Below are positions 63 through 18,752 of a stretch of 18,814 nucleotides of DNA, piece after piece. Within the stretch, counting starts at the first letter, position 1. Each line of letters starts with the position of its first letter. The position numbers were made by a program, and so were the translations under genes. The notes under the pieces were generated by a model. It was not told the DNA's origin and did no database searches. It saw only the letters and a list, made by a program, of their open reading frames with translations. The DNA comes from a virus: the UHGV virus genome UHGV-2198042; one strand, written 5' to 3'.

Positions 63-77
63 TTAGTATAAAAAAGC
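63..77. repeat. att core (O) copy, attR-type junction (P-O-B' read on minus strand)
   Basis: ttagtataaaaaagc is the reverse complement of the lambda core GCTTTTTTATACTAA; host-like sequence on one side, P-arm-like sequence on the other. Confidence 0.85.
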
Positions 78-222
78 TGAACGCGAAACATTAAAAAACA
101 TTAATATCAATGTGTTACAATATCTTTAGTCTAAAAAATAGACTACATGATGCTACAAAACACAACATATCCAGTCACTATGAATCAACTACTTAGATAG
201 TATTAGTGACCTGTAACAGAGC
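78..222. promoter_or_regulatory. attP P-arm homologue with Int arm-type sites
   Basis: Close (not identical) match to the lambda P arm from memory, including the arm-type motif cagtcactatg and ...tattagtgacctgtaacagagc. Confidence 0.65.
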
Positions 223-265
223 ATTAGCGCAAGGTGATTTTTTGTCTTCTTGCGCTAATTTTTTG
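223..265 (+). terminator. sib/tI-like retroregulator hairpin-terminator
   Basis: attagcgcaag...cttgcgctaat 11-bp inverted repeat followed by TTTTTT; position and sequence resemble lambda tI/sib just beyond the P arm, on the strand transcribed from int in circular phage topology. Confidence 0.55.
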
Positions 266-662
266 TCAAACACATTACGTCGTTTGCTGAATTTACAACC
301 ATGCTCAGTATCTCGATAAGCGCAGAGAAATGATGCAATGGTGGGCGGACTGGCTTGATGAAAAGGTGGAGTGATCCACCTTAACCCATATCGAATAGAA
401 CAAAGTCTTGCAATCCAGTGCAAAGCTTTGTGCGCCTAAGTTTTGTCTAAGCGTTCTACTGAAAACATAGTAAAATCGGTAACGGCTGGAAATCATTCAA
501 TACTCGCACTATCGAAAGTTCGCCAGCCAGCCGTGGCACGTTCTTGCATACGACGTGCTACGGTTTCATTTATCTCCCGAAACTCCATTTGGATTTATCC
601 GGTGCGCCGTAAAACCCCGTCCTTCAGGGCGTGGAGGATGTCAACTGGACGCACTGGAGCTG

Positions 663-725
663 GTCGATACTTCCGGTGCGCCAGATATTGAATGGCCTAC
701 GCCTCCGGCAGTTCAGGCCAGATGA
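663..725 (+). pseudogene. vestigial tail-fibre-assembly C-terminus in inverted orientation
   Basis: + strand frame reads VDTSGAPDIEWPTPPAVQAR*, matching the conserved Tfa C-terminal motif (..DTS.APDI.WP..P); upstream in frame is not Tfa-like and hits a stop at 480-482. Overlaps the 3' end of the minus-strand tfa. Confidence 0.45.
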
Positions 726-1305
726 CATCCGGCGCGGTGCTGGTATCTGTTGCCGTCACCGCGTCAATGTAATCCAGCGCAGCGTTAAGTCGGGCGGTTT
801 CTGCCTGCGTCAGATTCCGTCCGGCCCGTAATTTCAGCTGAATCAGACTAATGGAAGCCATTGCTGCATCAATCAGTGACTGGCGCTTTACTTCTGCCGC
901 GTCTAGTGCGGCACTATGCTGTGCATCGGCATCCGTCACCCATTTTTGGCCATCCCATTTGTCGTATGGCGTATCAGGTGCTTTGGTGGTGGTTCCTTCC
1001 GGGTATTCTCCCAACTGTGAAACTGCCACAGGTTCTCCAGTTTCCGTGCTGTAAACGGTTTCGCCGCGATGGTCTGCAACATATTCCCAACCGGTCAAAT
1101 CAGCCGTCCGGCAAACAGCAAAGCCGTCCTTTTTGCTGATTGGCGCATCCACGCACGAATTGCCTGGAACACCAACGCCAACGGGAAGATATTCAACAGA
1201 TAAACCGATATATTCACGCGTCACGCCATCGTAATTATAAACAGTGATAACCCCAGATTCCGTGGCGAACCCGTTTTCATCCAGGTTGATTTCTTTTGTG
1301 GTCAT
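697..1305 (-). CDS. tfa: tail fibre assembly protein (Tfa family)
   Basis: 202 aa; C-terminus ...DTSTAPDVIWPELPEA typical of lambda Tfa / Mu gpU-type chaperones; immediately downstream of the tail fibre gene. Confidence 0.8.
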   Translation of the reverse strand: MTTKEINLDENGFATESGVITVYNYDGVTREYIGLSVEYLPVGVGVPGNSCVDAPISKKDGFAVCRTADLTGWEYVADHRGETVYSTETGEPVAVSQLGEYPEGTTTKAPDTPYDKWDGQKWVTDADAQHSAALDAAEVKRQSLIDAAMASISLIQLKLRAGRNLTQAETARLNAALDYIDAVTATDTSTAPDVIWPELPEA

Positions 1306-2189
1306 TATACCGCCCTTACAATGTAGTTGAATGCAATGTTGCGCGGACGGGTTTCTGAGCCGCCCACTTCGACGGTTGGTCGAGTATCGAAATTTACTAC
1401 TTTCCCGCTTGCATCTGCTGAAACAAGGTCATAGCCCCCAGTAGGATCAAAGGCGCTTAACCCCCATGTGCGATCAAAGTTATGGCTGTGGGATTTAAAC
1501 TCATCGTTCTGAGTAGACAGTAAACCGCGGCCATTATCCACACCGCGCCCGTCATCCCAGCCACGAATAAACTCACCACGTAAATCAGGCAATTTATTTG
1601 TCGGATAAGCCTTTGCTAGTTCCGGATATTCTTCAGCAGAAAAAGCCGCACCATTGCATTTCAACCAGCCTGTTGGCGGAGTGGCTGAAGGCCACGGAAC
1701 AGGCACCCCAACAGGTAATGCTGAGCCTTCTCCCAAACCAAGGTATGTGAGAATATCAGCAATAGTATTTTTCCCAATAATGTCACGGCCAACAGAAGTT
1801 AAATCAGTCTGCGCTGCTGTATCATTTCCAGTGAAATATGGGAGTTTATTTGCACCTGTTGCGAGCCCAGCTAATGCCGACAGCGTGGCATCAAGCGCCT
1901 GGAAATCTTTCCCGAAAGCGGTCCCCATTTTGGATATAAACCCGTTCAGGTCTCCATCATCAAGCACATCCAGCCCGCTTTTGTTGGCGGTGTACTGCGC
2001 CAACGCTGCCGCGATAAAGCTGGCTTGCCGAATAGCTTTGTTGACCTGTGCGCTGGATGCTTTACCTGCCGTAAACCCTGAAAGCAGAGCCGGAAGTGCT
2101 TCCCAGTCAGCTTGTGAGGTGACGTTAGCGTTCGGATCAAGCGCGAAAGGTTTAAAGTTGTTTATTGCCATTAGAGTATTGTCCCCCAT
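1305..2189 (-). CDS. tail fibre protein (P2 gpH-like N-region, tail-collar type C-terminus)
   Basis: 294 aa; segment DATLSALAGLATGANKLPYFTGND...VGRDIIGK resembles the P2 gpH conserved region; C-terminal GWLKCNGAAFS...PDLRGEFIRGW resembles the phage tail collar motif. Confidence 0.75.
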   Translation of the reverse strand: MGDNTLMAINNFKPFALDPNANVTSQADWEALPALLSGFTAGKASSAQVNKAIRQASFIAAALAQYTANKSGLDVLDDGDLNGFISKMGTAFGKDFQALDATLSALAGLATGANKLPYFTGNDTAAQTDLTSVGRDIIGKNTIADILTYLGLGEGSALPVGVPVPWPSATPPTGWLKCNGAAFSAEEYPELAKAYPTNKLPDLRGEFIRGWDDGRGVDNGRGLLSTQNDEFKSHSHNFDRTWGLSAFDPTGGYDLVSADASGKVVNFDTRPTVEVGGSETRPRNIAFNYIVRAV

Positions 2190-2851
2190 GCTCCAACATC
2201 GAACCCGCCGATGTATTCGTTATCCATATCAAACCCAAAGAATTTAGAGCCTTCTGACGGTGTTTCTACCGAAGGCGTTTCAACATCACCGGCCCATACG
2301 CCAGCTGATTTAACGGTGAGATAGCCCTGTTTGATAGCGGCGATCAGTTCGAGAGACACATCAGAAATATCAGTTTCAGGGAAAACCCAGACCGAAATCG
2401 TCATGTCCTGGTTGTCGACGATCTGCATCCTCAGGCCTGAGCCTGCGGTAGCAGCGTCAAGGATGGGAGGCAGAGAGTCGTTCCGACCGTCCCAGTTGTT
2501 GATAGCGATTTTCGCTTTCAGAATGATGCGGTACGTCTCATCGCTTAGCGTCGTATAGCCAGAATCAGGATCATATGGCCCTTGCCAGATGCCCTGGTCA
2601 TACCCAAGCCCGTCAGTGTCCAAGCTGAAATAAACTCCGCTAATTGGCTGGCTGACTATGCGACTGCGTCCGATCCACAGACCGAGGATGTCGAGCTGTA
2701 CACCGACAGCAGTATCGATATCGAAGGCTGTTATAAGCCCTGACATAGTGCTGGACACATCAATCAGCGGGCAGGTGCTCAGATCTATATGGTCAAAAAA
2801 GAGTGGCTTGGTAGCGTGGTAGTTAGTGATCAGTTCGGTGTATTTGCTCAT
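2171..2851 (-). CDS. baseplate protein (P2 gpI / Mu gp48-like)
   Basis: 226 aa ORF between the baseplate J-like gene and the tail fibre gene, with overlapping stop/start; assignment by synteny and size. Confidence 0.6.
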   Translation of the reverse strand: MSKYTELITNYHATKPLFFDHIDLSTCPLIDVSSTMSGLITAFDIDTAVGVQLDILGLWIGRSRIVSQPISGVYFSLDTDGLGYDQGIWQGPYDPDSGYTTLSDETYRIILKAKIAINNWDGRNDSLPPILDAATAGSGLRMQIVDNQDMTISVWVFPETDISDVSLELIAAIKQGYLTVKSAGVWAGDVETPSVETPSEGSKFFGFDMDNEYIGGFDVGAWGTIL

Positions 2852-4047
2852 GAGGTCACCGTGATACTGATATTCGCGGTGCTACAGGACGCTGAAGCAT
2901 CATAGGCAATATCAATGTTTGATGCCGATACGCTGCCAGACGACTTACCGATCAGCAGGTCGGTAATATCGTAATAGCGGGCATTCCCGCCGCTCACAAC
3001 GCCGAGGTTTGCCGGGGAATAAATACGGCTCAGCAGAACGTCGTCGCCAATTGTTAGGCCATTTATATAATCGGCAACAGCCTGTTTAATCTGCTCGCCG
3101 ATTTGAGAGGTATAGCCGGTAAAAACTTTCAGGGTAATGGCTACGAAAATTGGCACATCGGTAGAGCGCGAAAAACTGATGACGTGAGGATTACCATAAG
3201 TATCCGGCACTGTGACAGAAGTTTTACCGTAAGTTGCGGTTCCCTGCCCTTTATTCCCCCTGATGGTCTGGGCTATCTCGGTAACATCCCCTCCATCGAC
3301 GATGGCGGAAATAGAGTGTGGCGGCAGCCCGTTGCTGTCGGTTGCCCCAGTATCGTTCTTATATAGTTTGTGACGTGTCACGCCAGCAACATTAGCGATA
3401 GCACCGTCGACACCTTCAAACGGTGTGATCGATGGTAGCGCGACGCTTTGCCCCTGCCGAATGCGCAGCTCTGCGTCGGTTTCGGCTGGTGAACCGACAG
3501 TAGCCGCAACTGGATTGGTTACCGACACCCAACCTCGGGTCGGGGTGTTGATAGTGGTAATAGTCCCGGCCAGCGCCGCAACCGAACCGCTATTCGCACA
3601 TGTGGCCGTCACCAGCACAGTACCATCAACGCCGATCGCTACACTTGCGGGAAAATTCCAGATAATGCCGTTTTTATCCCGTGCGGAGCCATTCGTGATA
3701 GTCGTGCCTGCCGTACCGGTTAACAGAAGGTCAGCAGTAGAGTTTGTCGCTACTTTTCGCGTGATCCCGTTAATTTTCACATTGCTGCTAAGCGCTGCGG
3801 CCTGCGCTGTCGTCGGTGAAAAAGAGTTGTAGATCCCGATAGCGGTGTTGTTAGCGTCATGCACGGCAAGAGCCACCAGCGCGACCATCTGCCCGTCTTT
3901 GCTGTCTGGTTCGAGGTAGGCATCACTACCGTAAATCTGCCTGAAATAGCTGGTCAGTGTATCTAGGATTGTCTGGTAATCAGGCGCACTAATCCCCTGG
4001 GCGGTTACCGTTGCCGATAGCCCCAGCGTGTCGAGGTTCAAAGCCAT
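2848..4047 (-). CDS. baseplate J-like protein (P2 gpJ / Mu gp47-like)
   Basis: 399 aa; size, composition and synteny (after the gp25/W-like gene, before the gpI-like gene) fit baseplate J-family wedge proteins. Confidence 0.7.
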   Translation of the reverse strand: MALNLDTLGLSATVTAQGISAPDYQTILDTLTSYFRQIYGSDAYLEPDSKDGQMVALVALAVHDANNTAIGIYNSFSPTTAQAAALSSNVKINGITRKVATNSTADLLLTGTAGTTITNGSARDKNGIIWNFPASVAIGVDGTVLVTATCANSGSVAALAGTITTINTPTRGWVSVTNPVAATVGSPAETDAELRIRQGQSVALPSITPFEGVDGAIANVAGVTRHKLYKNDTGATDSNGLPPHSISAIVDGGDVTEIAQTIRGNKGQGTATYGKTSVTVPDTYGNPHVISFSRSTDVPIFVAITLKVFTGYTSQIGEQIKQAVADYINGLTIGDDVLLSRIYSPANLGVVSGGNARYYDITDLLIGKSSGSVSASNIDIAYDASASCSTANISITVTS

Positions 4048-4401
4048 TTATGCCTCGCTTGTTACAGTCGTCTGGCCGTAGATTGTGTCAATGGAGGAAG
4101 TGAAGGTGACGCGACGGCTGGTGCCGTCATAATTGGTATCGAAGGAAAGAATCGACAGAACGCCCGGTGTATCCTGTATGCGTTCGCGTATAGCCAGGAT
4201 GTAGACATCTGATCGCTGCTTCCCAAGCACTGACTGAACATACGGCGTGCCTTCCGTCAGATCGAGAAACCACTGACCGCGCCACAGCTCGAAACGGGTT
4301 TTTACGGCCTGGGCGACACATTCCGGACTGTCGATAAGGAAAGTATCGTCACCCTGGCCGAAAGTGTAATCGCCTTCAGTATCTTCGCGACGGTATCGCA
4401 T
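4048..4401 (-). CDS. small baseplate protein (gpW/gp25 or Mu gp46-like)
   Basis: 117 aa ORF tightly coupled between the spike and J-like genes. Confidence 0.5.
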   Translation of the reverse strand: MRYRREDTEGDYTFGQGDDTFLIDSPECVAQAVKTRFELWRGQWFLDLTEGTPYVQSVLGKQRSDVYILAIRERIQDTPGVLSILSFDTNYDGTSRRVTFTSSIDTIYGQTTVTSEA

Positions 4402-5141
4402 TATTGCGGCCCTCCGGTAGTTCCCCCGCCAGTCTGTACTCCGCCATGTTTATGCGTGGCGACACTGATACCAGAAGCTGTTACGTCATTCGTTACCGTC
4501 ACCGGCCCAAGCATCGTCGCAGTACCGCCGCTTTCGCCCATTCCCTGAGACAAGTTGCCATTAATCGTTACGTTGCCGTTCAGCGTGATAGTCGGGGATG
4601 TGATTGTCGTTCCACCTTCAGCCGTAGCTGTAAGCTGGCCCGGTGTTTTAATGGTGATGTTATGTCCTGCGGCGACTTCTACAAACGCCGCACCATCATC
4701 GGTTCGCAGCTGCGCGGCGCTGGTACTGATACCGCTGATTTTCCGTGCTTGCGACTGTGGGCCAACGATGGCGAACGCATCAGATAAGTCATGCTGGCGC
4801 GGGTCGACGGTCTCCTGCACGCCGCCGCTCTGCCACCAGAAATCGATGCAACGGTCGGCAAAGAGCAGCAGGCACTCGTCGCCTTCTTTAACCGGAAAAG
4901 TCAGCGTACAACCGCCGCCACGCGGGAAGATAACCGGCACATCCACCAGCGGTTTTAATTCGGTGGAGCCATCGCCAACGATACCGCGAAGCGCTACCTC
5001 TACCGTGCAGGTAACAGTGTCAGGATCGAACGACTGAATGATGCCGGGCATCGCTACGCGCATCTGGGTAGACACCGAATCGGCAATGGCCTGCGCGGTC
5101 TGCTGCTCACCGCCGATCTGTGATTGAGTTGGAATTGGCAT
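4401..5141 (-). CDS. baseplate spike/hub protein (P2 gpV / Mu gp45-like)
   Basis: 246 aa; N-terminal region ...PLVDVPVIFPRGGGCTLTFPVKEGDECLLLF resembles the gpV OB-fold; Gly/Thr-rich C-terminus; G-rich RBS before the ATG. Confidence 0.7.
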   Translation of the reverse strand: MPIPTQSQIGGEQQTAQAIADSVSTQMRVAMPGIIQSFDPDTVTCTVEVALRGIVGDGSTELKPLVDVPVIFPRGGGCTLTFPVKEGDECLLLFADRCIDFWWQSGGVQETVDPRQHDLSDAFAIVGPQSQARKISGISTSAAQLRTDDGAAFVEVAAGHNITIKTPGQLTATAEGGTTITSPTITLNGNVTINGNLSQGMGESGGTATMLGPVTVTNDVTASGISVATHKHGGVQTGGGTTGGPQ

Positions 5142-5152
5142 AAAACCCCCAT

Positions 5153-5180
5153 AAAAAAACCAGCCGAAGCTGGTTTGGTA
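5153..5180 (-). terminator. intrinsic terminator-like hairpin (minus strand) upstream of spike gene
   Basis: Minus strand reads aaaccagc-TTCG-gctggttt followed by ttttat; 8-bp perfect stem with a UUCG tetraloop and a U-run. Confidence 0.45.
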
Positions 5181-5242
5181 TCAATTATCTCTTAGTAACT
5201 AAGCTACATCAGTGTGAAGTAAGGCTTTTCCGCTGCAATGGC

Positions 5243-5259
5243 ACACATTCACAATGTGT
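5243..5259. promoter_or_regulatory. 7-bp inverted repeat (acacatt-cac-aatgtgt), operator-like
   Basis: Perfect palindrome in the intergenic region about 105 bp upstream of the + strand small ORF; -35-like hexamers (ttgcaa, ttgaaa) nearby. Confidence 0.25.
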
Positions 5260-5363
5260 ATTAGGATATGTTTGCAACAAGTAAGCATTGAAAATCAATT
5301 TCAGCCATGAAGCCGCCATAGAGTGGACCTGCACCATCGCATTATTGACTACAGGAGTAACAA

Positions 5364-5654
5364 ATGGGATTTAGATTTCGTAAAAGAATCCGGATTGCGC
5401 CCGGACTCGCGATCAACATTAGTAAAAGCGGAGTAAGCACTTCAATTGGTGGTAAAGGTTCCACCATTAACATCGGGAAAAAAGGCGTAAAGATGACAAA
5501 TGGCCTTCCCGGCACGGGGCTGTCGCATACCACTAACCTTTACTCTCCCGGGAAATCGACAGAAAAAAAACAACTTACTCATAAGCAAAAAATAATTAGA
5601 AACATCCTGTTCGTAATTATTGTGTTTATTATAATTAAAGCTCAATATTTTTGA
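5364..5654 (+). CDS. DUF4236-like small protein with C-terminal transmembrane helix
   Basis: 96 aa; N-terminus MGFRFRKRIRIAPGLAINISKSGVSTSIGGKG... resembles DUF4236 proteins from memory; C-terminal ILFVIIVFIII hydrophobic stretch; RBS aggagt 6 nt before ATG; antisense to all neighbouring genes. Confidence 0.55.
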   Translation: MGFRFRKRIRIAPGLAINISKSGVSTSIGGKGSTINIGKKGVKMTNGLPGTGLSHTTNLYSPGKSTEKKQLTHKQKIIRNILFVIIVFIIIKAQYF

Positions 5655-5658
5655 CGCA

Positions 5659-5690
5659 TGCCCGCCTATCTGGCGGGCTATTTTACTTTT
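5659..5690 (+). terminator. intrinsic terminator of the small + strand ORF
   Basis: gcccgcc-tatct-ggcgggc 7-bp GC stem followed by tattttactttt, starting 5 nt after the ORF stop; overlaps the stop codon of the convergent 296-aa gene. Confidence 0.55.
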
Positions 5691-6568
5691 CGGCAGTCGT
5701 ATGTTGCATACTGGCGCGGCGCGTCTATGCTGGCCTGCAACCACTGTGCGTTGAGAATAGCTTTTCCGTTGCGCTTGATGTACTCAAGCCCAACCCAGCG
5801 GCCGGGTTGATTAGTGGCAGCCATCCACTCCATCTTGATGTTATCCGGTTCCCCTTTGGTGCTACCACCAGAGCCGATTGGGCTAATTTTTTGCGTCTCT
5901 GGTTTTGCGCCATTAATTCTGGCCCAACCATCAGCAGAAGACAGATCAATCGTATAAGGACCACAGACTGTTTTGTAATTCACGCCAAGCTTTTCGTTAC
6001 TGTGAACATTACTACTTTTCTCGTAATCAGCCTTGGCTACGTCGTTCATTTTTTGATAGATGGCAGGTTGCTTCAGCGATAACTCATTTAGCTGTTTTAC
6101 AAAATTTTCTCGTGAAACCTCTGCAAGCCCCATGGGTTTTCTATCAATGATATAATCATCATAAATCTTTAATACAACAGCCGAAGAAGAAAGTTTCTTA
6201 GCTAAATCATTTACAAAATTGAGATAATTTAGCTGAGAATTATCTCTTACATCGATAGCCCTAACTCCACCTGTGCCGTACTCATGATATGCAGCATAAA
6301 AAGCTGGTATATTCTCCGGCTTTTTATTGATTGCCTTAATCAACCCGTCAGGACCACAGATCTCGCCACTCCAGTCAATTAGTGACTTCCCTTTAGATTT
6401 CCATGTCTGACAATCATCTGTCGATAAAATTACTATCGGCTGCCATCCTGGACGTCTTTTGTACTCAGCGTTCTGCGCGGAATTAAAGCCTGCACTCGCG
6501 CCCCCGGATAAGAGCAACCCGGAAAGAAAAAGTGCGCTATATCGAATTCCGTTCTTATTTGTACCCAC
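5678..6568 (-). CDS. secreted/periplasmic protein of unknown function (signal peptide)
   Basis: 296 aa; GTG start 7 nt after an AGGAGG RBS and directly after the upstream gene stop; N-terminus MGTNKNGIRYSALFLSGLLLSGGASA/GF is signal-peptide-like; AT-rich relative to flanking tail genes; shares a 17-residue motif with the tape-measure protein. Confidence 0.65.
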   Translation of the reverse strand: MGTNKNGIRYSALFLSGLLLSGGASAGFNSAQNAEYKRRPGWQPIVILSTDDCQTWKSKGKSLIDWSGEICGPDGLIKAINKKPENIPAFYAAYHEYGTGGVRAIDVRDNSQLNYLNFVNDLAKKLSSSAVVLKIYDDYIIDRKPMGLAEVSRENFVKQLNELSLKQPAIYQKMNDVAKADYEKSSNVHSNEKLGVNYKTVCGPYTIDLSSADGWARINGAKPETQKISPIGSGGSTKGEPDNIKMEWMAATNQPGRWVGLEYIKRNGKAILNAQWLQASIDAPRQYATYDCRKVK

Positions 6569-7636: not shown

Positions 7637-7638
7637 TT

Positions 7639-10185: not shown

Positions 10186-10291
10186 GTTGTTGAGCTTTTG
10201 CCCAACCCGCCCTGATAGCTGCCTGTGTGGCGTTTAAATCTTTCAGGTACTCACGGGCAAACAGCTCTTGTTTGTCGGTGAGCTTTGCCAT
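10136..10291 (-). pseudogene. terminase small subunit N-terminal stub
   Basis: 51-codon frame MAKLTDKQELFAREYLKDLNATQAAIRAGW... matches the conserved terS N-terminal HTH motif, then loses similarity and stops; overlaps the tape-measure start in another frame; GGAG RBS upstream. Confidence 0.5.
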
Positions 10292-10901: not shown

Positions 10902-11395
10902 CCCGGAAGCCCGGGGATCGTAATCTGCAGCTGGTTAGCCAGGGAGTTAATCTCAGCGACCAACACTGGCTTCGTATAGCGCCATGCTGCCAGCCCTTGT
11001 CCGCAGAAGCTCGCCATGTCTTTCTTCTGGTCAAACTCATGACATTTCATGTTGAGCTGCGCACTTAAGCTGTTGCGATGCTGAAGTTCTCCGGTGAAGT
11101 AGTCATCGAGGACTTTATAGGCCGCGTACTTGAACCCGGGGTTTAACCAAGCCGCATAATCGTAAGCAACAAACTTCCCGCCATATGTTCCACCGTGTAC
11201 ACCGCGCTCAGTAAAAACCACAGATTCGTGGTTTTTCTCCAGCTCGGCTAAGAACTCTTTGGTCTGCTTGTTTCGCAGGTAGTGGTAAGGCGATTCAGAT
11301 TCACTTTTACCACTAGCTTTCCACATATCAGTGAGGCAGATCATGCCATCTTCACCGATACGAATTGGTTGATTGAAGAGGGTTAATGATTTCAT
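10898..11395 (-). CDS. KilA-N domain protein
   Basis: 165 aa; N-terminal LTLFNQPIRIGEDGMICLTDMWKASGK...YHYLRNKQTKEFLAELE fits the KilA-N DNA-binding fold pattern from memory. Confidence 0.55.
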   Translation of the reverse strand: MKSLTLFNQPIRIGEDGMICLTDMWKASGKSESESPYHYLRNKQTKEFLAELEKNHESVVFTERGVHGGTYGGKFVAYDYAAWLNPGFKYAAYKVLDDYFTGELQHRNSLSAQLNMKCHEFDQKKDMASFCGQGLAAWRYTKPVLVAEINSLANQLQITIPGLPG

Positions 11396-11596: not shown

Positions 11597-12064
11597 TTAT
11601 TTCAGGCATTGCGTCCTGATGTATTCCTGCAGGTAGTTAACCTGCGCGGTTATCTTGTCGATTCCACTTCGTAGACGGTAATAATTGAGTTCAGCATCTG
11701 CTGTAAGTCTTGGGCTTTCTCCATCGCCCATGCTGCTGGCTCCGGTCGTTGACTTTGCACAGGTGGCGGCGACTTGCAGGCGCTTACGGCCAGCAATGAC
11801 ATCGCTATGCAGACGCTCAATGGTTTCTTTCGCATCAGCCAGTTCTCCGGTGTATTTGGCATCCAGTGCAGCGACATCACGCTGGCGGGTCTGCATGTCT
11901 TTAATGGTGGCGGTCGCCAGGAGGAGTTTCTCAGTGGCCTTATCGCGCTGGTCTCTGTAAGTGATGGCGTTGTCGCGGTAGTGGTTCACGAAGAAAGCCA
12001 GTGCGCCGATTAACGCCAGCACCAGCAACTGCAGCCAGTAACGCTTAACCAGTGCGCTAATCAT
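11597..12064 (-). CDS. Rz: i-spanin Rz
   Basis: 155 aa; N-terminal TM helix then ...[18 protein letters not shown]...[20 protein letters not shown] closely resembles lambda Rz; start overlaps R stop. Confidence 0.85.
11650..11835 (-). CDS. Rz1: o-spanin Rz1 (embedded in Rz, +1 frame)
   Basis: Internal start [20 protein letters not shown] with a lipobox (LAVSAC) and Pro-rich mature region, fully nested in Rz as in lambda. Confidence 0.7.
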
Positions 12065-12510
12065 GACAGGAACAGAGCTCGCTCTGCCTTGCGGCGATTC
12101 GTGAGCCCCGGCATCACCTTTCCGCCTGATTTATTCCAGCGCAGAAATTCATCTGCCGCGCCTTTTATATCGCCAGCATTCAGCTTTTTCAGCAGTGTAG
12201 ATGTGGAAAGAGCACGCGACCCAACGTTGTAAGCGAACGACACCAGTGCGTCGAACTGGCCTTGTGTCAGCTTCACCCTGACAACTTTCAGCACGTCATT
12301 CTCATAACCAACAAGCCCTGTTTTCAGAAGCCTGTCAGCGGTTTGCTGGTCGATAGTCATACCGCGCTTTACTGGCTTTCCGTCAACCGGATGGGTCCAG
12401 CCATAGCCGATGGTCCACGGCGCATCTCCCGTTCCGGGGTCGGGGTAAGCAGTCAGCCGACAACCTTCAAATTTTTTTATCAGAGCAATTCCGTCAGGAC
12501 TGGTTTGCAT
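12061..12510 (-). CDS. R: endolysin, T4/P22-type lysozyme (GH24)
   Basis: From internal Met [16 protein letters not shown]... about 149 aa; ...[14 protein letters not shown]...[11 protein letters not shown] matches the P22 gp19-type lysozyme from memory; the ORF-track N-terminal extension overlaps the holin gene. Confidence 0.85.
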
Positions 12511-12817
12511 CGTCAACTCCCGCCTTTTTTGCTGCAAGTTTTTTAATAAGATTGCCGATCGAATCGGTGCCGATGTATCCAATAAAGACGCTGGCTATGT
12601 AGGCGAGGTTGCTGCTCAGGCCGATAAAGTCCAGAAGGTCACGAACGAACCAGGCAATCATCGCGCACATCAGCGCATCAATTAGCGTTTTTGTTACCGC
12701 GCCGCCGTTATAGCGACCACGCAGATACGCCATGATAAAAGCCAGCATTGCACCAATACCCTGCTCCTTGGCGGCAAGTAGCGCAGCGATGAAATCTTGT
12801 TTGTATGGCATTTTCAT
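12494..12817 (-). CDS. S: class I holin, lambda S-like (dual-start MKM)
   Basis: [39 protein letters not shown]... is near-identical in pattern to lambda S; GGAGG RBS; the ORF-track upstream start (12826) is probably not used. Confidence 0.85.
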
Positions 12818-13196: not shown

Positions 13197-13633
13197 GTTG
13201 CCAGTTTTCAATGAAGATAATGCGGGCAAAAAAAGCCTGCTCGGACGAACAGGCATGAAAAATAACAATACCGTCAAGGAGGTGGCGCCGGGTGCCTCCC
13301 GGTGGAACAGCCCCAGCCGACTAGTTCCGCGCAAACAAACCTGGACAAAAAAGTTTGACTGGACGCCCCGCCGCATAGGGGGATTCACCACGAACCAAAA
13401 GATAAAATCATCCGGTGACCGGGGCAATATCTAACCGGAACTTTTCAGAATCACTTATTGTTTCCTGGAGAGTACATGAGCGTTGGTGAATTCACGTGAT
13501 GCTTTTGGATGAGCGCTGAACCCAAAGGTCAGTATTTTCACACAGCAATTTTGCAAAAAGCAGCGCCCATTCAAAACCAGGTCGCTTTCCAGTCACTCCG
13601 GGGAACCCATCATCGCAGACTGGAAAGCTTTTA

Positions 13634-13671: not shown

Positions 13672-13926
13672 TTATTTCCAGCTTTCGCCATTTAAGGCTG
13701 AAAGCACTGTTTGATGTGTTACACCAAACATTCTCCCTAGCCCTCTGGCTCCATAAACCTTATGTCGTGGAATGTAGTTTTCTCTGATGAACTGGACGCT
13801 GTCCATTGTTAGCTTGCTCATACCATTCAGCTCACCAGCTACTAAGTAGCTAAGGTCAAATTTGGTTTTCTGAATGTGGCATGCAGAACATAGTAGTTGG
13901 CACTTTTCAACCTCAGCATAAAACAC
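13672..13926 (-). pseudogene. HNH endonuclease C-terminal fragment with HTH
   Basis: 84 aa starting at GTG directly after an in-frame TAG; contains CQLLCSACH (zinc-binding half of an HNH motif) and an HTH-like segment, but lacks the N-terminal catalytic part. Confidence 0.4.
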
Positions 13927-14133
13927 CTAATCTGAGTGATAGTGCATCTCGCTTACATTTGCTGATTTGGTGGAAGGGTCTATGTGGTCAAACTGAAGCG
14001 AATATTCGGATCCGCAACTCGCGCAACGACCACCCAACTTTTCCACGGTCTTAGCAAGCCTAGCCCTTCGATTAAGATAGTAATCTTTGCTCGGCATTTA
14101 CCACCTCTACCATTGGAGCTAAACCAGCATGTT

Positions 14134-14208
14134 TGGCGGGATAGCGTGGACTCGAACCACGATAAGAAGGTTAACAGCCTTCCGTAATGACCTTTATACG
14201 ACTGACCC
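14134..14208 (-). tRNA. tRNA-like element, anticodon GUU (Asn-like), probably degenerate
   Basis: 75 nt on minus strand: acceptor gggtcag, D-arm with A14 and GG, anticodon stem gaagg/ccttc with loop cuGUUaa, T-arm cgtgg-TTCGAGT-ccacg, 3' ctatccc-g-CCA; acceptor stem has 2 central mismatches. Confidence 0.35.
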
Positions 14209-14298
14209 AAATAAAAAAGCCACCGTTGCAACTTAAGAGTCACTAACGGCAGCTTATGCGAATAGTGTTGCTCATTTGCTCAATGATGTCAACACGTT

Positions 14299-14787
14299 CT
14301 ATGCTACATGTTTAATTTTCTCTACACGTTTCCGGTTTTTAAACGCACTATCCAGAACCGGGTAAATCATAAACAACGAGGCATTGAGGATTTCGTCAAC
14401 TTCCCGACGACAGGTTGCGAGCGATGGTTTTTGAATGCGCCCTCCGCCCCGGCATAACATCTTGCGAGGTCTTGCGACGCGATGATAGTAAGATGCAATG
14501 GCGTGCTTGGAAGATCCATGGGCGTAGTAGCTGAGGAGGATGCCAAAGGCTTTCTTGTCAATGTACATGACGGAATCGACGACCTGAGAAATCAACATTC
14601 CATCATCATCATTGCACATTGGCCTTGTCATAACTCTTCCCGGCTCTACGCTCTCCATGAACTTCGCTATTACGCTGCTCATGCGCTTTTCAAGACGACC
14701 TGAATAAACCCATGCCCCCCACAGTTCAAGCCAGCCATTCAGCCACTCGTGCTGCTCTTTGGTGAGGTTTAGTTCTCTTATGCCCAT
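14299..14787 (-). CDS. Q: late-gene antiterminator Q (non-lambda Q family)
   Basis: 162 aa ORF immediately downstream of ninH and upstream of the lysis cassette; several Cys/His; no similarity to lambda Q itself but the size fits small Q proteins (phage 21 type, from memory). Confidence 0.6.
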   Translation of the reverse strand: MGIRELNLTKEQHEWLNGWLELWGAWVYSGRLEKRMSSVIAKFMESVEPGRVMTRPMCNDDDGMLISQVVDSVMYIDKKAFGILLSYYAHGSSKHAIASYYHRVARPRKMLCRGGGRIQKPSLATCRREVDEILNASLFMIYPVLDSAFKNRKRVEKIKHVA

Positions 14788-14972
14788 CGTCTTCCCCTCT
14801 TGCCCTGTTTGACCATCAGGACGCCGTTAACTATTACGTGACGCTCGCCTTTGCTGTCTCGGTTGTACTTAAGCACTGTTCCTCTTGCGCAGGAAAGCAT
14901 CCTTGCCACTTCGGTCTGATTGCCTCGTGTCTGGATAAGAAGCTCTGGTATCGTTTGAATTGTGGCGTTCAT
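14778..14972 (-). CDS. ninH: NinH
   Basis: 64 aa; ...TIPELLIQTRGNQTEVARMLSCARGTVLKYNRD...HVIVNGVLMV closely matches lambda NinH as I recall it. Confidence 0.8.
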   Translation of the reverse strand: MNATIQTIPELLIQTRGNQTEVARMLSCARGTVLKYNRDSKGERHVIVNGVLMVKQGKRGRRWA

Positions 14973-15331
14973 ACGTTCTCCAGTTCGGTGATTTTTATTC
15001 CAAGCCGTCCGCCTGGTACTTTCACGCCACGAATTACGCGAATGTCATCGAATTGCTCGTCGTCTTCCGCAAATCCGGCGTGGATAAGGGAGTCGAGTAA
15101 ACCTTTCAGGATGTTGTCGAGGTCGCGGCGGCGGGAGTCTGGAACGTCTGCGATGACTTTGATGCGGAGTCGTGATTTGGTGAAAATGTCTAACTTAAGT
15201 TGGCGGATGATTTGCTGAACGTCTTTTCGGTATTTCTGGCCTTTATCGCTGATGTAGTATTGGCTTCCCCGTCTTCGCCAGTAGGTATTCACCGACGGCG
15301 GGTATGGAAGCACAAACTGATATTCGTTCAT
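14969..15331 (-). CDS. rusA: Holliday junction resolvase RusA
   Basis: 120 aa; LPYPPSVNTYWRRRG... and catalytic-region motif RRRDLDN match the RusA family. Confidence 0.85.
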   Translation of the reverse strand: MNEYQFVLPYPPSVNTYWRRRGSQYYISDKGQKYRKDVQQIIRQLKLDIFTKSRLRIKVIADVPDSRRRDLDNILKGLLDSLIHAGFAEDDEQFDDIRVIRGVKVPGGRLGIKITELENV

Positions 15332-15618
15332 GACTTAATCTTCCCCTCCTTCAGCAGTATCGCCTGCGTCCTGATCACGCCTTCGAGGTGGTAAAGCCTG
15401 GCGTCTTTGTTGTCGAGATTATGGGTGCGTCGGTCGATTTCATCGTGACACGCGCTACAAGCCCATGCGCCGATCAGGTCGTCAGGCTTCATTCCCGTTC
15501 CGCAAATTCCAGCCATCCGGTAATGTGCCAGAACTGTAGTTTCAGGGTTGCCATTGCATACGCCGTAAATACGTACCTGGCATTCTCTGCCGCGCGCTTC
15601 TTTGCGTAGGTTAGCCAT
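15328..15618 (-). CDS. YbcO-like DUF1364 protein (nin region)
   Basis: 96 aa; RKEARGRECQVRIYGVCNGNPETTVLAHYR...ACSACHDEIDRRTH resembles E. coli DLP12 YbcO from memory; start overlaps rusA. Confidence 0.65.
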   Translation of the reverse strand: MANLRKEARGRECQVRIYGVCNGNPETTVLAHYRMAGICGTGMKPDDLIGAWACSACHDEIDRRTHNLDNKDARLYHLEGVIRTQAILLKEGKIKS

Positions 15619-16340
15619 TAAGCAGCCTCTCCTGTTACTTTCAGCATTCCGTTATCGAGCAACTTTCTGGTCAGCCACTGTTGACCGCGCCCGGTGATTT
15701 TTGTGGTGAACGATATCTGTATTCCGTGATTTGTATTGACCGCTGTTTCTTTCACTGTGAAATAGCCGCGATCCATATATTCCTGCATTGGCACATTGCG
15801 CCGGGAACCTGAAGCAATAAGGATTTTGTGATCGCGCATCCACGCAAACAGTTTGTTTGGACCAATACCGACAACCTTTGCAAAGTTTCCAATCAAAATT
15901 CCGCTGGCCTCGCCAACGCGATCGGCAAACTCAACTTTAGGTGCGGCAATTGCGAGCTGGTTTTCCAGTTGCATTTTCTGCTCAGCAAGATCAGCAGCAA
16001 GGCGCAACGCTTCTGGTAGCGTTTTGGGGATATTAACCGCAGCTTCTTCAAGCTCTCGCCAGCGGTCAACAAGGCGAGCGGTGAATTCCGGCGACAACTG
16101 GGCAACAACGACAATACTGTCTCGCTTACCTTGTTCGCCTTCGAAGACGTAATGCTCGTACTGAACATTGAACCCTAAGTTATTGATTCTTTCGGAAACC
16201 TCAATTTGAGGAAGCCGGATAACACCATTTTTAGCCAGCGTTTCGATGGTACGTTTCACATTGTCATGACGCTTACCAACCAACTCAGCGATTTCAATGC
16301 TTGTCATTTTGATGGCATTGCCATTTATTAACTCATTCAT
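15618..16340 (-). CDS. Rha-family regulatory protein / antirepressor with KilAC C-terminal domain
   Basis: 240 aa; N-terminal MTSIEIAELVGKRHDNVKRTIETL (Rha-like), C-terminal ...FAKVVGIGPNKLFAWMRDHKIL...TTKITGRGQQWL (KilAC-like). Confidence 0.7.
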   Translation of the reverse strand: MNELINGNAIKMTSIEIAELVGKRHDNVKRTIETLAKNGVIRLPQIEVSERINNLGFNVQYEHYVFEGEQGKRDSIVVVAQLSPEFTARLVDRWRELEEAAVNIPKTLPEALRLAADLAEQKMQLENQLAIAAPKVEFADRVGEASGILIGNFAKVVGIGPNKLFAWMRDHKILIASGSRRNVPMQEYMDRGYFTVKETAVNTNHGIQISFTTKITGRGQQWLTRKLLDNGMLKVTGEAA

Positions 16341-16503
16341 CGTCTTCTTCCTCGTGCATCGAGCTATTCGGATCGCTCATCAGTTCTGCGCAGCAGTGCT
16401 CACACACGTGAACTTCCAGCACATGCAGCTTCTGACCGTAGTTAGCGCACGTTAAAGCTCGCTCGACACTTCCTTGTTCGTAACTTCGATTTTGGTCAAT
16501 CAC
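16333..16503 (-). CDS. ninF: NinF-like zinc-binding small protein
   Basis: 56 codons below the ORF-track cutoff, GTG start after a GAGGA RBS: ...SVERALTCANYGQKLHVLEVHVCEHCCAELMSDPNSSMHEEEDDE, near-identical in pattern to lambda NinF from memory; stop overlaps the Rha gene start. Confidence 0.6.
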   Translation of the reverse strand: MIDQNRSYEQGSVERALTCANYGQKLHVLEVHVCEHCCAELMSDPNSSMHEEEDDE

Positions 16504-16524: not shown

Positions 16525-17559
16525 CTAATCGACCAGAATCATGCCAACACATCCTTTTTCTCGCTTGATTCGACGACTTTCGCTGACGATTTGAGCCAGA
16601 GATAATCCCGGCGTGTCGTCGATGTAAAGCAGGTCGATTTCACTCAAGCGATTGGCTGTTTCGATCGCCCTGTTGAAGTCACCATCGTAATCACCCTGAT
16701 AGCCGTCATCAGCGTCATTTGTCGCCGGAATGTAAAAAATATTCGGGTTAACACCTGACTTCTGTCCTACCAGCTTTTCCAGTATCTGGTCGCCTGGCAT
16801 TTCAAGACTGAACATCAGAGCGGGCTTTTTCTCATGCACTGCGCAGTTGATTGCCATCTGGCTGTATAGCGTCGTTTTCCCCATCTTAGGGCGAGCGCCA
16901 ATGACGAACAGAGAGCCTTTCACCAGACCTTTCGGTGACAGCATCCTGTCCAGAGATGGGATCCCTGTGCTCATTCCTCGTTGTTCGCCTGACGGGTCAA
17001 ATCGCTTCTCAAGGTCGCTAACCCAGTCTTCCATGACCTCACCAAATGAGCGAAGGCCGCGACGCGATCCGGTTTTTGCATGGTCTGTCAGTTGCGTGAA
17101 AATCGCCTGAATAGCTTCGTACTTCTGCGTTGCAGTCATTCCGTTGCGGGAATAGAGCAATTCCGTCGCTTCAGTCATGCGGTTGATGGCGTAGCGTTCC
17201 ATTGCGGTTTCACGAACCTGCATTGCATAGGCAACGATGTTTGCTGCGCTTGGCGTGTTCTTTGCGATCTCAGCGATATAAGCAAAACCGCCAACAGACG
17301 CCGTTAACGATTTACGCTCCAGTTCATCGAAAAGCGTCAGGCCATCTACTGGCTTTTGCTCCCGGTGCATTCTGGTTATTTCTTCGAAAAGGATTTTGTG
17401 TGGTCGGCTGTAAAATGAATCAGGCTTCAGCATCGCCAGAACTTTCTGGACGCGCTCACTGCTGTCATCATCCAGAAGCAATCCACCAATCACCGCCTGC
17501 TCTGCCTCGATGCTATGGGGCGGCGCATAAAAATTATCGGTCATCGTGTTCACCCTCAC
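16525..17559 (-). pseudogene. DnaB-like replicative helicase (P22 gene 12 type), 3'-truncated at Walker B
   Basis: 344 aa; Walker A GARPKMGKT present; ends ...GCVGMILVD* exactly where the DnaB Walker B motif (hhhhDYLQ) should continue; about 100 C-terminal residues missing. Confidence 0.7.
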
Positions 17560-18115
17560 GAACTTTCAGGTAGGTATTATCGTTAAGCAGGAAATCAAAT
17601 CCCTTTTTGTGCCAGACGGTTCCGCGTTGATGGTTTGGGCGCTCTTCGAACATCCATCGGCAATTTTCGCCAACGTAGCTCAAATAATTTCTCCAGTCCT
17701 GCATCGTGAACCCATGCCCGTCAAGTTGGCGTGTTATTACTCCGGCTTTGCGCCAGAACGTTCGGATCTGGTTTTTACGCTTGTCATTCAGTGCGCGGAT
17801 TCTTGGCGCTTCAGGAAGGATTTCGTGGTAAGCATCGACAACATCCTGACAGCTGACGGAAGGTTTTTTCTTGTCAGACTTTTTGTCTGCTGTGGCACTC
17901 TCTAATACGTCAGTATTAGAGATATTATTTATATTATTGTTTATGGACAACTGTTGGACAACCGTTGGACAATCTCCGCTGAGAGCCGCACCATTACTGG
18001 TGTTTGCGTTGGACAACCGTTGGACAACCGTTGGACAATTTTTTGACTGAAAATCGTCATATTTAACGATTGTAAACAGGCTAAATTTCTTCCCCATCGC
18101 GCAAATATTAAGCAT
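17534..18115 (-). CDS. replication initiator (O-like, iteron-containing); start codon uncertain
   Basis: Overlaps helicase start as in O-P / gene 18-12 arrangements; contains the iteron cluster in its 5' part (repeated CPTVVQRLS); the ORF-track N-terminal 37 codons overlap the int-homologous segment, so an internal Met (about 18115 or 18097) is more likely. Confidence 0.5.
   Translation of the reverse strand: MLNICAMGKKFSLFTIVKYDDFQSKNCPTVVQRLSNANTSNGAALSGDCPTVVQQLSINNNINNISNTDVLESATADKKSDKKKPSVSCQDVVDAYHEILPEAPRIRALNDKRKNQIRTFWRKAGVITRQLDGHGFTMQDWRNYLSYVGENCRWMFEERPNHQRGTVWHKKGFDFLLNDNTYLKVREGEHDDR
17944..18038. repeat. replication origin iterons: six copies of an 11-bp unit NNGTTGGACAA in two triplets, flanked by an AT-rich tract
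   Basis: Seen directly: atggacaa/ctgttggacaa/ccgttggacaa and gcgttggacaa/ccgttggacaa/ccgttggacaa; AT-rich tattagagatattatttatattattgtttat adjacent (about 17900-17943). Confidence 0.7.
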
Positions 18116-18217
18116 CCCTTTCGACTCAAAAGTCCGTAATAAGCTCCGAACTTTGTTGTCGGGGATGAATGTTTCTCTGACCAGCGACGGGCGTCCAGTT
18201 GTCCGATAGCTCCCTGT

Positions 18218-18664
18218 ACCGGGCAACGAGTCGGTGATTTATGCGAAATGAAGTGGTCTGATATCGTAGATGGATATCTTTATGTCGAGCAAAGCAAAAC
18301 GGGCGTAAAAATTGCCATCCCTACAACATTGCATGTTGATGCTCTCGGGATATCAATGAAGGAAACACTTGATAAATGCAAAGAGATTCTTGGCGGAGAA
18401 ACCATAATTGCATCTACTCGTCGAGAACCGCTTTCATCCGGCACAGTATCAAGGTATTTTATGCGCGCACGAAAAGCATCAGGTCTTTCCTTCGAAGGGG
18501 ATCCGCCTACCTTTCACGAGTTGCGCAGTTTGTCTGCAAGACTCTATGAGAAGCAGATAAGCGATAAGTTTGCTCAACATCTTCTCGGGCATAAGTCGGA
18601 CACCATGGCATCACAGTATCGTGATGACAGAGGCAGGGAGTGGGACAAAATTGAAATCAAATAA
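18218..18664 (+). pseudogene. int: integrase C-terminal fragment (lambda Int residues about 209-356)
   Basis: Translation ...TGQRVGDLCEMKWSDIVDGYLYVEQSKTGVKIAIPT...HELRSLSARLYEKQISDKFAQHLLGHKSDTMASQYRDDRGREWDKIEIK* is near-identical to the lambda Int C-terminus from memory; upstream of about 18218 the frame is unrelated and hits a stop at 18140-18142. Confidence 0.85.
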
Positions 18665-18737
18665 TGATTTTATTTTGACTGATAGTGACCTGTTCGTTGC
18701 AACAAATTGATAAGCAATGCTTTTTTATAATGCCAAC
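18665..18737. promoter_or_regulatory. attP P'-arm homologue with Int arm-type sites
   Basis: tgactgatagtgacctgttcgttgcaacaaattgataagcaatgcttttttataatgccaac matches the lambda P' arm from memory. Confidence 0.7.
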
Positions 18738-18752
18738 TTAGTATAAAAAAGC
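18738..18752. repeat. att core (O) copy, attL-type junction (B-O-P' read on minus strand)
   Basis: ttagtataaaaaagc followed by aggcttca..., matching the attB B arm from memory. Confidence 0.85.

Follow-up and report, generated by a model that had tools for sequence, protein, structure and literature searches.

Gene content and attachment sites of the remnant

The analysed stretch of DNA (the window, 18,814 nt) holds an 18,690-bp remnant of a lambdoid prophage at the lambda attB site (gal-bio), in the ybhB/ybhC interval of the E. coli chromosome (Table 1). The window ends are the correct chromosomal flanks on both sides, and the flank of one carrier contig has 99.6% identity to E. coli. As in a lambda-type integrated prophage, the 15-bp core is present twice in identical form. 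The P arm is 88% identical to that of lambda and 96.6% identical to that of E. coli strain 81, and its X/F/H2 region represents an allele common to intact same-site relatives. Among the predicted Int arm sites of the P arm, P1 is identical to lambda, and P2 has one mismatch that is found in intact relatives too. An earlier, sequence-only reading of the window had described both lambda-type att cores with their P and P' arms as intact, which holds: attL and attR are both intact, with P1 and P2 conserved in the variant P arm.

Table 1 Features of the prophage remnant and its chromosomal flanks
Feature	Position (nt)	Strand	Basis
Chromosomal flank, ybhB/bio side (B' arm of attR)	1-62	.	Contiguous with ybhB in strain 81 and FJ_Ec_21
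attR core GCTTTTTTATACTAA (reverse complement)	63-77	-	
P arm of attR	78-265 (end approximate)	-	Alignment with lambda, HK629, strain 81, FJ_Ec_21
Tail fibre assembly protein, 202 aa, full length	697-1305	-	Pfam Caudo_TAP 1.2e-30; FJ_Ec_21 length equal
Tail fibre with collar domain, 288 aa	1305-2171	-	Pfam Collar, PHROG tail fibre; carrier-contig gene call
DUF2612, baseplate J, sheath-initiator/wedge (117 aa), gpV spike; full length	2171-5141	-	Lengths equal FJ_Ec_21
Low-GC insert inside baseplate operon	5142-6568	.	GC 0.43-0.46; Pfam/PHROG
DUF4236 gene within low-GC insert	5364-5654	+	
296-aa ORF within low-GC insert	5678-6568	-	
Baseplate hub, 355 aa	6569-7636	-	PHROG baseplate hub 8.8e-85
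Baseplate plug pseudogene, codon 30 TGG to TGA (W30, 7855-7857)	7639-7944	-	Translation and FJ_Ec_21 alignment
Dit-like baseplate protein, 200 aa	7946-8548	-	Pfam Dit_like 7.7e-31
Tape-measure/SLT transglycosylase without first 141 codons	8548-10206	-	Homology to FJ_Ec_21 tape measure stops at 10206
J3, terS/tape-measure junction	10204-10206	.	terS nt 85 joined to tape-measure codon 142, microhomology AAC
Small terminase gene (terS), first 85 nt	10207-10291	-	Pfam Terminase_2 positions 1-31 only; translation
85-aa protein and KilA-N/ORF11CD3 protein (165 aa), full length	10644-11395	-	HK620 lengths equal
Rz spanin, 155 aa, intact	11597-12064	-	Pfam
Endolysin, 149 aa, intact	12061-12510	-	Pfam
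Holin, 107 aa, intact	12494-12817	-	Pfam
STnc100-family sRNA match	13224-13416	-	Rfam RF02076, 71.7 bits (gathering score 47)
HNH endonuclease pseudogene, stop at codon 57 (13927-13929)	13672-14097	-	Comparison with intact 141-aa copy, E. coli KL53
Truncated tRNA-Thr, first 24 nt	14105-14128	-	ARAGORN, Rfam; phage 21 alignment
tRNA-Asn	14134-14208	-	ARAGORN, Rfam; phage 21 alignment
Phage-21-type pR', Q-binding element (QBE), pause element, terminator	14209-14293	-	99% identity to annotated phage 21 region
Antiterminator Q, phage 21 type, 162 aa, full length	14299-14787	-	Pfam Phage_antitermQ; phage 21 Q likewise 489 nt
ninH, rusA, ybcO, roi (antirepressor), ninF, all full length	14778-16503	-	Lengths equal HK620/HK629
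J2, helicase/ninE junction	16526-16528	.	Helicase nt 1019 fused to final 38 nt of ninE
DnaB-like helicase (P), truncated after codon 339	16525-17544	-	Pfam DnaB_C 1-136 of 255; translation
Replication initiator O without first ~74 codons	17534-18203	-	PHROG O-like, profile 74-292 of 297; HK629 alignment
J1, O/int junction with 13-nt filler	18204-18216	.	O ends 18203, int begins 18217
int remnant, lambda Int codons 209-356	18217-18664	+	146/148 identical to lambda Int 209-356
attL: P' arm (18665-18737) and core (18738-18752)	18665-18752	-	Identical to lambda attP P' arm and core
Chromosomal flank, ybhC side (B arm)	18753-18814	.	

Apart from the two genes with nonsense mutations and those at the three junctions, every remaining gene is full length. 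For the mutated baseplate plug, the gene call in the carrier contig yields only a 61-aa product. The sequence-only reading had counted lysis cassette, Q, nin genes, ori and baseplate/tail-fibre genes as spared, which is correct for the lysis cassette, Q, the ninF to ninH side, the ori iterons and most baseplate/tail-fibre genes, but not for the plug, for ninB, ninD and ninE, which are lost, or for O. The shortened O gene holds the ori iterons (17944-18050) and an AT-rich/palindrome segment (about 17899-17940). Intact copies of the helicase gene have 478 codons; the remnant lacks the C-terminal third, and its ATG-start product is 339 aa long. PADLOC returned no defence match for the 296-aa ORF, the DUF4236 protein, Roi or the 85-aa protein, and only a weak, domain-level match for the KilA-N protein.

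Excision would depend on functions that the element no longer encodes. Alignment confirms that int is reduced to its C-terminal ~148 codons, and because the longest int ORF starts at M219, the catalytic R212 is missing. A full-length int or xis elsewhere in the element was looked for and not found, and neither ORF analysis nor profile searches identified xis, cI, cro, N, cII or exo/bet-type genes within it, in agreement with the reported absence of xis and the immunity region. Gene content and truncations also agree with the view that the element has no route of its own to excision, immunity or packaging; a route to replication is missing as well. With int, O, helicase, terS and tape measure truncated and repressor, terL, portal, capsid, sheath and tube absent, the element has the make-up of a cryptic (defective) prophage. 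A contractile, R-pyocin-like tailocin was rejected, as J3 removed sheath, tube and chaperone, the tape measure is shortened and the plug carries a nonsense codon. A phage satellite (PICI/P4-like) was rejected because integrase and initiator are truncated, capsid-redirection and intact small-terminase genes are lacking, and the content is collinear with a full-size phage.

Deletion junctions and their recurrence

E. coli FJ_Ec_21 carries an intact prophage of ~41.7 kb at the same attB (NZ_CP143627, about 3,083,800-3,125,500). Save for three deletions and some allelic module swaps, the remnant is collinear with it, as expected of a derivative of a complete phage. Alignment with lambda and related prophages located all three deletion endpoints exactly and, by mapping them to the nucleotide against FJ_Ec_21, substantiated the proposal that internal deletions had shrunk the phage to ~18.7 kb. 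The predicted int/initiator deletion is J1, where O homology stops and int resumes after the filler; in none of 1,990 matching E. coli genomes does the O allele continue beyond 18203. This deletion took int codons 1-208, xis, the pL operon, the immunity region with pL and pR, and the O N-terminus. J2 removed 1.26 kb (helicase nt 1020-1437, ninA, ninB and most of ninE), with an exact TAA microhomology (+ strand) within an imperfect 9-of-12 match, and itself creates the stop codon that ends the helicase. It had been read as a helicase/ninF junction; the deletion is real and mapped to the nucleotide, but its partner is ninE, which adjoins ninF. J3 removed 11.6 kb relative to FJ_Ec_21, from terS nt 86 through tape-measure codon 141, and with it terminase, portal, capsid/head, neck, sheath, tube and assembly chaperone genes. 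Its tape-measure endpoint, 10206, equals position 29616 of the FJ_Ec_21 locus, where the gene spans 27958-30039. Both the terS/tape-measure deletion and the loss of head/terminase and sheath/tube genes had been recognized correctly from the sequence. Transposase genes or IS ends are absent at all three junctions, and IS-mediated deletion was rejected on these grounds.

The window is 100% identical to ENA ERZ28810828 NODE_832, and its match to a metagenome contig, together with the repetition of lambdoid modules within E. coli genomes, raises the question of an assembly chimera, in which the junctions would be artefacts from joining reads of several prophages. However, the junctions are identical, base for base, in ERZ773108 and SRR30861120. 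In SRR31716339, the contig with the terS/tape-measure junction is identical to the window, and a helicase contig with 2 mismatches in 1,367 nt abuts the helicase breakpoint. As the junctions are thus known from at least four independent samples and both ends enter the correct flanks, a chimera, an objection that the sequence-only reading had itself raised, is barely conceivable. Known copies of the remnant differ by 0-2 nt, and in two carriers it is 100% identical although the flanks differ by 0.45%. The deletion junctions are absent from all 5,426 complete E. coli genomes, among which intermediates with only one or two of the three deletions were not found either.

In the DnaB-like P gene, the helicase breakpoint separates A1019 from C1020 (...GGTCGATTA/CCTGAC), directly behind the Walker B aspartate. 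Helicase homology also ends at nt 1019 in four further, unrelated contexts, where the sequence joined to it differs from case to case: a remnant adjoining sbcB, two IMG/VR prophage fragments fused to P22-like virion genes, and E. coli N1083, in which the other half of the gene is kept. The joints show 2-6 nt of microhomology ending in TA. It is conceivable, though doubtful, that nt 1019 is a hotspot of site-specific DNA breakage or recombination, at which lambdoid prophages are inactivated again and again; the recurrence would be accounted for by a nuclease that cuts there, whether it comes from the phage itself, from a competitor phage or from the host. When equally designed control patterns were placed at four other positions of the helicase gene, each returned 0-1 junction-like matches, versus 2 at nt 1019, which is weak support for a hotspot. 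The reciprocal-side pattern had no matches in IMG/VR, and a JGI metagenome scan for the breakpoint returned chance 19-mers and one SNP allele only. A hairpin at the breakpoint was rejected, since shuffled sequences fold just as well as the local inverted repeat (z = -0.36). An intein or homing endonuclease was likewise rejected: the 343-aa LAGLIDADG intein of many helicase alleles sits after K223 (nt 669). If confirmed, a helicase hotspot would be a specific, repeatable route of lambdoid prophage inactivation and would matter more than the remnant itself.

Neutral decay, host function or mobility

We conclude that the element is very probably a cryptic ('grounded') lambdoid prophage in neutral decay. 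It derives from a temperate phage with a lambda-type Int and a contractile tail that integrated at lambda attB between ybhB and ybhC. The Q of this ancestor was of phage-21 type, its O, P and nin region was of HK620/HK629 type, and its tail module comprised DUF3383 sheath, DUF3277 tube and SLT tape measure; FJ_Ec_21 shows how the genes were originally arranged. Three illegitimate deletions, formed at a 3-nt microhomology, at 3 nt within an imperfect 12-nt match and with a 13-nt filler, then grounded it. Losing the repressor together with both early promoters would have been survivable, since O, P, the nin genes and Q would be left undriven. With Q unexpressed, transcripts from pR' would end at the terminator, so that holin, endolysin and spanin would be neither expressed nor harmful and would have lasted by default. 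As short sites in a young element, the att sites may have escaped damage, and the element encodes no recombinase in cis that could use them. Decay is ongoing: point mutations have already created a nonsense codon in each of the plug and HNH genes. What was retained is simply the DNA between the three deletions; the full-length state of the remaining genes fits a recent origin and is also compatible with selection on some of them.

A different proposal, made in the sequence-only reading, is that the retained set reflects selection. In such a domesticated remnant, Q, the late promoter and the lysis cassette would be kept because they serve the host, for instance in controlled lysis, in the release of vesicles or in excluding related phages, perhaps together with tRNA-Asn, STnc100, Roi or KilA-N. 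Q, pR'/QBE, holin, endolysin and Rz are indeed full length, with 99-99.6% identity to their counterparts in viable phages; the lysis cassette (11597-12817) has 99.6% identity to the isolated viable phage Louie, with equal gene lengths. There is also a proposed precedent in DLP12 (PMC7918800, PMC3105296), whose lysis operon was reported to influence vesicle production (PMC7918800), and the remnant is identical in two carriers despite their diverged flanks. Yet the nonsense mutations in two other retained genes (7855-7857 and 13927-13929) speak against selection on the set. So does strain 81, whose remnant belongs to the same phage family and occupies the same attB but has kept different genes, with none of the Q, late-promoter and lysis genes. 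The element is missing from the 5,426 complete genomes, and the known copies are too alike to gauge purifying selection. The tail module is non-functional without sheath, tube and full tape measure. The deletion of pR leaves Q with no known promoter, and a sequence scan detected no excess of promoter-like sites upstream of it. Although intact, Q, the late promoter and the lysis cassette are probably silent, pR being gone, and silence would explain their state equally well; a weak internal promoter or read-through transcript may still express them. On balance, domestication is unlikely.

Identity of the remnant across two flank backgrounds could also point to helper-dependent mobility, whereby the 18.7-kb element would be excised and replicated in trans by another phage, either resident in the same cell or superinfecting, that has lambda-specificity Int/Xis and matching O/P. 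The att arms match functional ones exactly or nearly so, and iterons and AT-rich region are kept. However, neither a circular form nor an insertion at another site is in evidence, only 85 nt of terS are left, capsid-size or packaging-redirection genes are lacking, and recombination of the flanks is a simpler account of the shared identity. We consider such mobility highly improbable.

As a grounded prophage, the remnant is one more example of lysogen lock-in, in which one deletion takes repressor, both early promoters and recombinase and leaves dangerous late genes intact but probably silent. Intact att sites and lysis genes in a remnant are not by themselves evidence for selection. The intact same-site relative, which lets each breakpoint be read to the nucleotide, makes this a clean case for teaching and benchmarking.

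Relation to other lambdoid prophages

Inspection of the same locus in related strains, as had been suggested, showed the intact prophage in FJ_Ec_21 and a different remnant in strain 81. FJ_Ec_21 shares site and module order with the window, and its tail-fibre/baseplate/tape-measure, terS, KilA-N, helicase and int sequences are 87-99% identical. Unlike the window, it has int, xis, repressor, cro, cII, full O and P, ninB-E, terS, terL, portal, capsid, neck, sheath and tube, and it carries other alleles of the lysis genes, roi and the Q-S spacer. The remnant in strain 81 (NZ_CP088131) shares phage family, attB, attL and attR, with 91-96% identity in the tail-fibre-to-tape-measure block. It arose by an independent deletion that fused a head-tail adaptor to cIII, and it keeps sheath, tube, full tape measure, kil, cIII, xis and full int, whereas it lacks the replication, nin, Q and lysis genes, all present at least partly in the window.

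Lambda and HK629 have in common with the window the integration site, the 15-bp core, an identical P' arm, an Int C-terminus with 99% identity, and the gene order attL-int, O-P-nin-Q-lysis, structural genes, attR. In contrast to lambda, the window has lost int codons 1-208, xis and the immunity and early regions, and has a phage-21-type Q, a variant P arm (88%) and a contractile-type tail module instead of the siphovirus tail.

The maps of the E. coli K-12 cryptic prophages DLP12 and Qin, with nin, Q, lysis genes, terS fragment and tail-fibre set, are similar to that of the window. Attachment sites and phage lineages of the K-12 elements differ, and the window has no IS elements. DLP12 and Rac occur in about 70% of strains (PMC6379469), unlike the remnant (0/5,426 complete E. 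coli genomes). Cryptic prophages of the window's kind are well described (PMC6379469, PMC3105296), and DLP12, Qin and Rac are ~20-kb remnants with neither excision nor particles (PMC6379469, PMC3105296, PMC7918800).

Integration site and deletion junctions

The element is bounded by the lambda attachment core at both ends (Table), and in E. coli genomes the 62 nt outside each core lead on to ybhB/bioA on one side and ybhC on the other, the longer flank of one carrier contig being 99.6% identical to E. coli. It is thus an 18,690-bp insertion in the classic E. coli attB (gal-bio), in standard prophage orientation, with the bio side at the start of the window and the gal side at its end. The P' arm, which adjoins the int remnant, and P1 of the P arm are identical to lambda, and P2 has one mismatch, so that the att junctions are as described in the sequence-only reading. 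The Xis/Fis/IHF segment of the P arm is a variant allele common to two other prophages at the same site, both of which encode full Int and Xis. In 6.1 kb of ybhC-side flank, two carrier contigs (L004 1-8866, L005 1003-11071) are separated by 29 SNPs and a 1.2-kb ybhJ indel, with zero differences in the last 520 nt of flank and 2.28 kb of remnant. This comparison suggests that the remnant locus, or its flank, has moved between lineages by homologous recombination.

Deletion junctions were mapped by local BLAST and base-by-base comparison against HK620 and HK629, whose O, P and nin regions are near-identical to those of the window, and against E. coli FJ_Ec_21 (NZ_CP143627), in which this attB is occupied by a complete prophage of the same family, ~41.7 kb long. 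Loss at J3 amounts to 11.6 kb, comprising the remaining terS, terL, portal, head, neck, sheath, tube, chaperones and 141 tape-measure codons. J2 removed 1.26 kb (helicase codons 340-478, ninA, ninB and most of ninE) at a 3-nt microhomology, TTA in the sense of the gene, within a 9/12 imperfect match, and the helicase stop codon arises from the junction. Depending on the relative taken as yardstick, 9 to 11.6 kb were lost at J1, where the O remnant stops about 74 codons short of its start (PHROG profile positions 74-292 of 297) and int retains codons 209-356 intact (146/148 identical to lambda Int). The sole ORF of the int remnant begins at M219 and would be without the arm-binding domain, the core-binding domain and the catalytic R212.

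No xis, repressor, cro, N, cII or recombination genes were found in the window, and no large terminase, portal, capsid, neck, sheath or tube genes. Most of what had been read from the sequence about the losses is therefore borne out: an int cut to its C-terminal 148 or so codons, the absence of xis and the immunity region, and the loss of the head/terminase and sheath/tube genes, which fall inside the J3 deletion. Truncated int and absent xis, repressor, large terminase and capsid genes likewise support the proposed lack of a route to excision, immunity or packaging. The three internal deletions stand at int/initiator and terS/tape-measure, but the one placed at helicase/ninF was one gene off and lies at helicase/ninE.

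ENA contig ERZ28810828 NODE_832 matches all 18,814 nt of the window at 100% identity. Contigs from ERZ773108 and SRR30861120 span J1 and J2 with zero differences; in SRR31716339 one contig spans J3 with zero differences and a second stops at the helicase breakpoint with two mismatches. Each junction-specific protein is carried by about eight contigs. Recurrence of the junctions in these three samples rules out an assembly chimera. None of J1, J2 and J3 occurs in complete E. coli genomes (0/5,426), which places the element in a rare lineage.

Coordinates and order of features (window positions unless a locus is named)
Feature	Position	Strand	Details
Lambda attachment core	63-77 and 18738-18752		GCTTTTTTATACTAA (reverse complement); both ends of element
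Two relics	270-375 and 645-725	+	Between attR and tail-fibre assembly gene
Tail block			In order: tail fibre assembly protein, collar-domain tail fibre, DUF2612 wedge, baseplate J, 117-aa wedge/sheath-initiator, gpV spike
Low-GC insert (43-46%)	5142-6568		Inside baseplate operon; DUF4236 gene on plus strand, 296-aa ORF
Baseplate hub, plug, Dit-like protein			After the insert
Plug nonsense codon	7855-7857		Codon 30 (W30), TGG to TGA
SLT-domain tape-measure gene			Then 85 nt of small terminase gene
J3	10204-10206		terS nt 85 joined to tape-measure codon 142; 3-nt microhomology AAC
85-aa gene			Then KilA-N gene
Lysis genes			Rz, endolysin, lambda-S-type holin
1.3-kb spacer			Between lysis genes and Q: STnc100-family sRNA match, HNH endonuclease gene, tRNA-Asn
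STnc100 sRNA family match	13224-13416	-	Rfam, 71.7 bits vs gathering score 47; between Q and holin gene
HNH endonuclease stop	13927-13929		Codon 57
tRNA-Thr fragment	14105-14128		Cut after 24 nt
Late regulator and nin genes			Q, ninH, rusA, ybcO, roi, ninF
J2	16526-16528		Helicase nt 1019 joined to final 38 nt of ninE
Replication genes			DnaB-like helicase, O-like initiator with five 11-nt-phased iterons, then int remnant
J1	18203/18217		O homology up to 18203, thirteen nt of unknown origin, lambda int from 18217
Shared helicase breakpoint	window 16526; L016 4590; L019 6789; L021 10739; L023 about 4001		...GGTCGATTA/CCTGAC (/ = break)
Remnant L016 (contig CAJSEE010000009.1)			Integrase, O fragment, helicase 1-339, endolysin 3' end, Rz, terS 5' fragment, baseplate hub
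Intein-bearing helicase alleles	L022 (E. coli WCHEC115106) 2170-3198		Also proteins P0010, P0011, P0056, P0071

Recurrence of the helicase breakpoint

A single nucleotide of the helicase gene (nt 1019) is the site of five junctions with five different partners, in the window and four unrelated remnants whose helicase alleles are about 2% apart. A look-up of the O fragment turned up a remnant beside sbcB (L016 from GCA_907172835.1; L017), in which the helicase likewise ends after nt 1019 and is joined to the 3' end of an endolysin gene via the microhomology CGATTA. A pattern search of IMG/VR (19 nt before the break, then any base but the normal C) returned two more junctions and one SNP allele. 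In one prophage fragment (L019) the partner of the helicase is the 3' end of a P22-like virion gene; in the other (L021) it is sequence lying upstream of a P22-like gene for head completion (DNA stabilization). The parental sequences have TA and TTA microhomology. E. coli N1083 (L023) holds the opposite half of the gene, from the same point (...CGCTTA/CCTGAC). Microhomology at the shared breakpoint is 2-6 nt and ends in TA. The sbcB-side remnant, at another locus, is more reduced, with a decay pattern similar to that of the window.

Three of the five junctions were found without targeting this site. Other truncated or fused helicase copies break elsewhere (nt 340, 1099 and 1268; aa 111, 378, 418 and 427), and when equivalent patterns were set at four other positions in the helicase, each yielded 0-1 junction-like matches (a divergent allele, none, none, a SNP). 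The local inverted repeat at the breakpoint is not unusual in stability. The coincidence of junctions might reflect a site-specific break at nt 1019.

In many alleles of the prophage helicase the P-loop is interrupted after K223 (GARPKMGK/T) by a LAGLIDADG-type intein of 343 aa, and RefSeq shows the interrupted gene as two pseudogenes separated by 1,029 bp that carry no annotation. As a cause of the break the intein was rejected by its position, away from nt 1019.

Retained genes: selection or silence

The minus strand carries every gene but two, a small one and the int remnant. Within the low-GC insert, the last 100 aa of the 296-aa ORF match PHROG 3443 (unknown function), the gene being intact in the window whereas it is a pseudogene in FJ_Ec_21; a defence-system search of the insert gave no match. 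Both relics near attR are also present in the intact FJ_Ec_21 prophage. One is a candidate C-terminal end of a P4-type integrase (...AQYLDKRREMMQWWADWLDEKVE before the stop), and RefSeq annotates only a partial hypothetical protein in the equivalent stretch of FJ_Ec_21. The other is an opposite-strand fragment of a tail-fibre assembly gene, which an invertible fibre cassette may have left behind. In phage 21, Sf6 and SfI, tRNA-Thr comes after tRNA-Asn; here a 1.3-kb module of HNH endonuclease and STnc100-like sRNA, which four further E. coli genomes, KL53 among them, also carry, stands in for the rest of tRNA-Thr. The cut is a mosaic boundary, not a deletion peculiar to this remnant.

The proposal that selection shaped the retained set finds no support. 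Two genes carry nonsense mutations: the plug protein is otherwise identical, and the HNH gene has an intact 141-aa copy in strain KL53. Baseplate and fibre genes can build nothing, since sheath, tube and full tape measure are missing. An independent remnant of the same family and site in E. coli strain 81 (NZ_CP088131) keeps a different set, namely sheath, tube, kil, cIII, xis and int, without lysis, Q, nin or replication genes. Known copies of the element differ by only 0-2 nt, so that purifying selection is not measurable. Of the genes listed as spared, the lysis cassette, Q and the iterons are indeed there, but the plug gene is interrupted, and ninB and most of ninE are deleted.

Q has its full length of 162 aa, which phage 21 Q shares. 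The pR' promoter with its Q-binding element, pause element and terminator, together with tRNA-Asn, matches the annotated region of phage 21 at 99% identity. Identity to the isolated phage Louie is 99.6% for the holin, endolysin and Rz genes, which have equal lengths in both. J1 took pR and pL along with the repressor, which leaves O, P, the nin genes and Q with no known source of transcription; a consensus scan of the upstream region gave five promoter-like sites versus 5.3 in shuffled sequence, i.e., no excess. Without Q, pR' transcripts should halt at the terminator. The simplest reading of the intact Q, pR' and lysis genes is that they are silent.

Comparison with known cryptic prophages

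The defining features of a tailocin and those of a satellite are both absent from the remnant, and neither reading was retained. A similar nin-Q-lysis-terS'-tail-fibre set is retained by DLP12 and Qin of K-12. With these, the reported influence of the DLP12 lysis operon on vesicle production (PMC7918800) gives the idea of selection a precedent; this notwithstanding, as far as the window sequence goes, nothing favours selection for the retained genes. The remnant is a cryptic or "grounded" prophage, a further example of the very well known kind to which DLP12, Rac, Qin and e14 belong (PMC6379469, PMC3105296).
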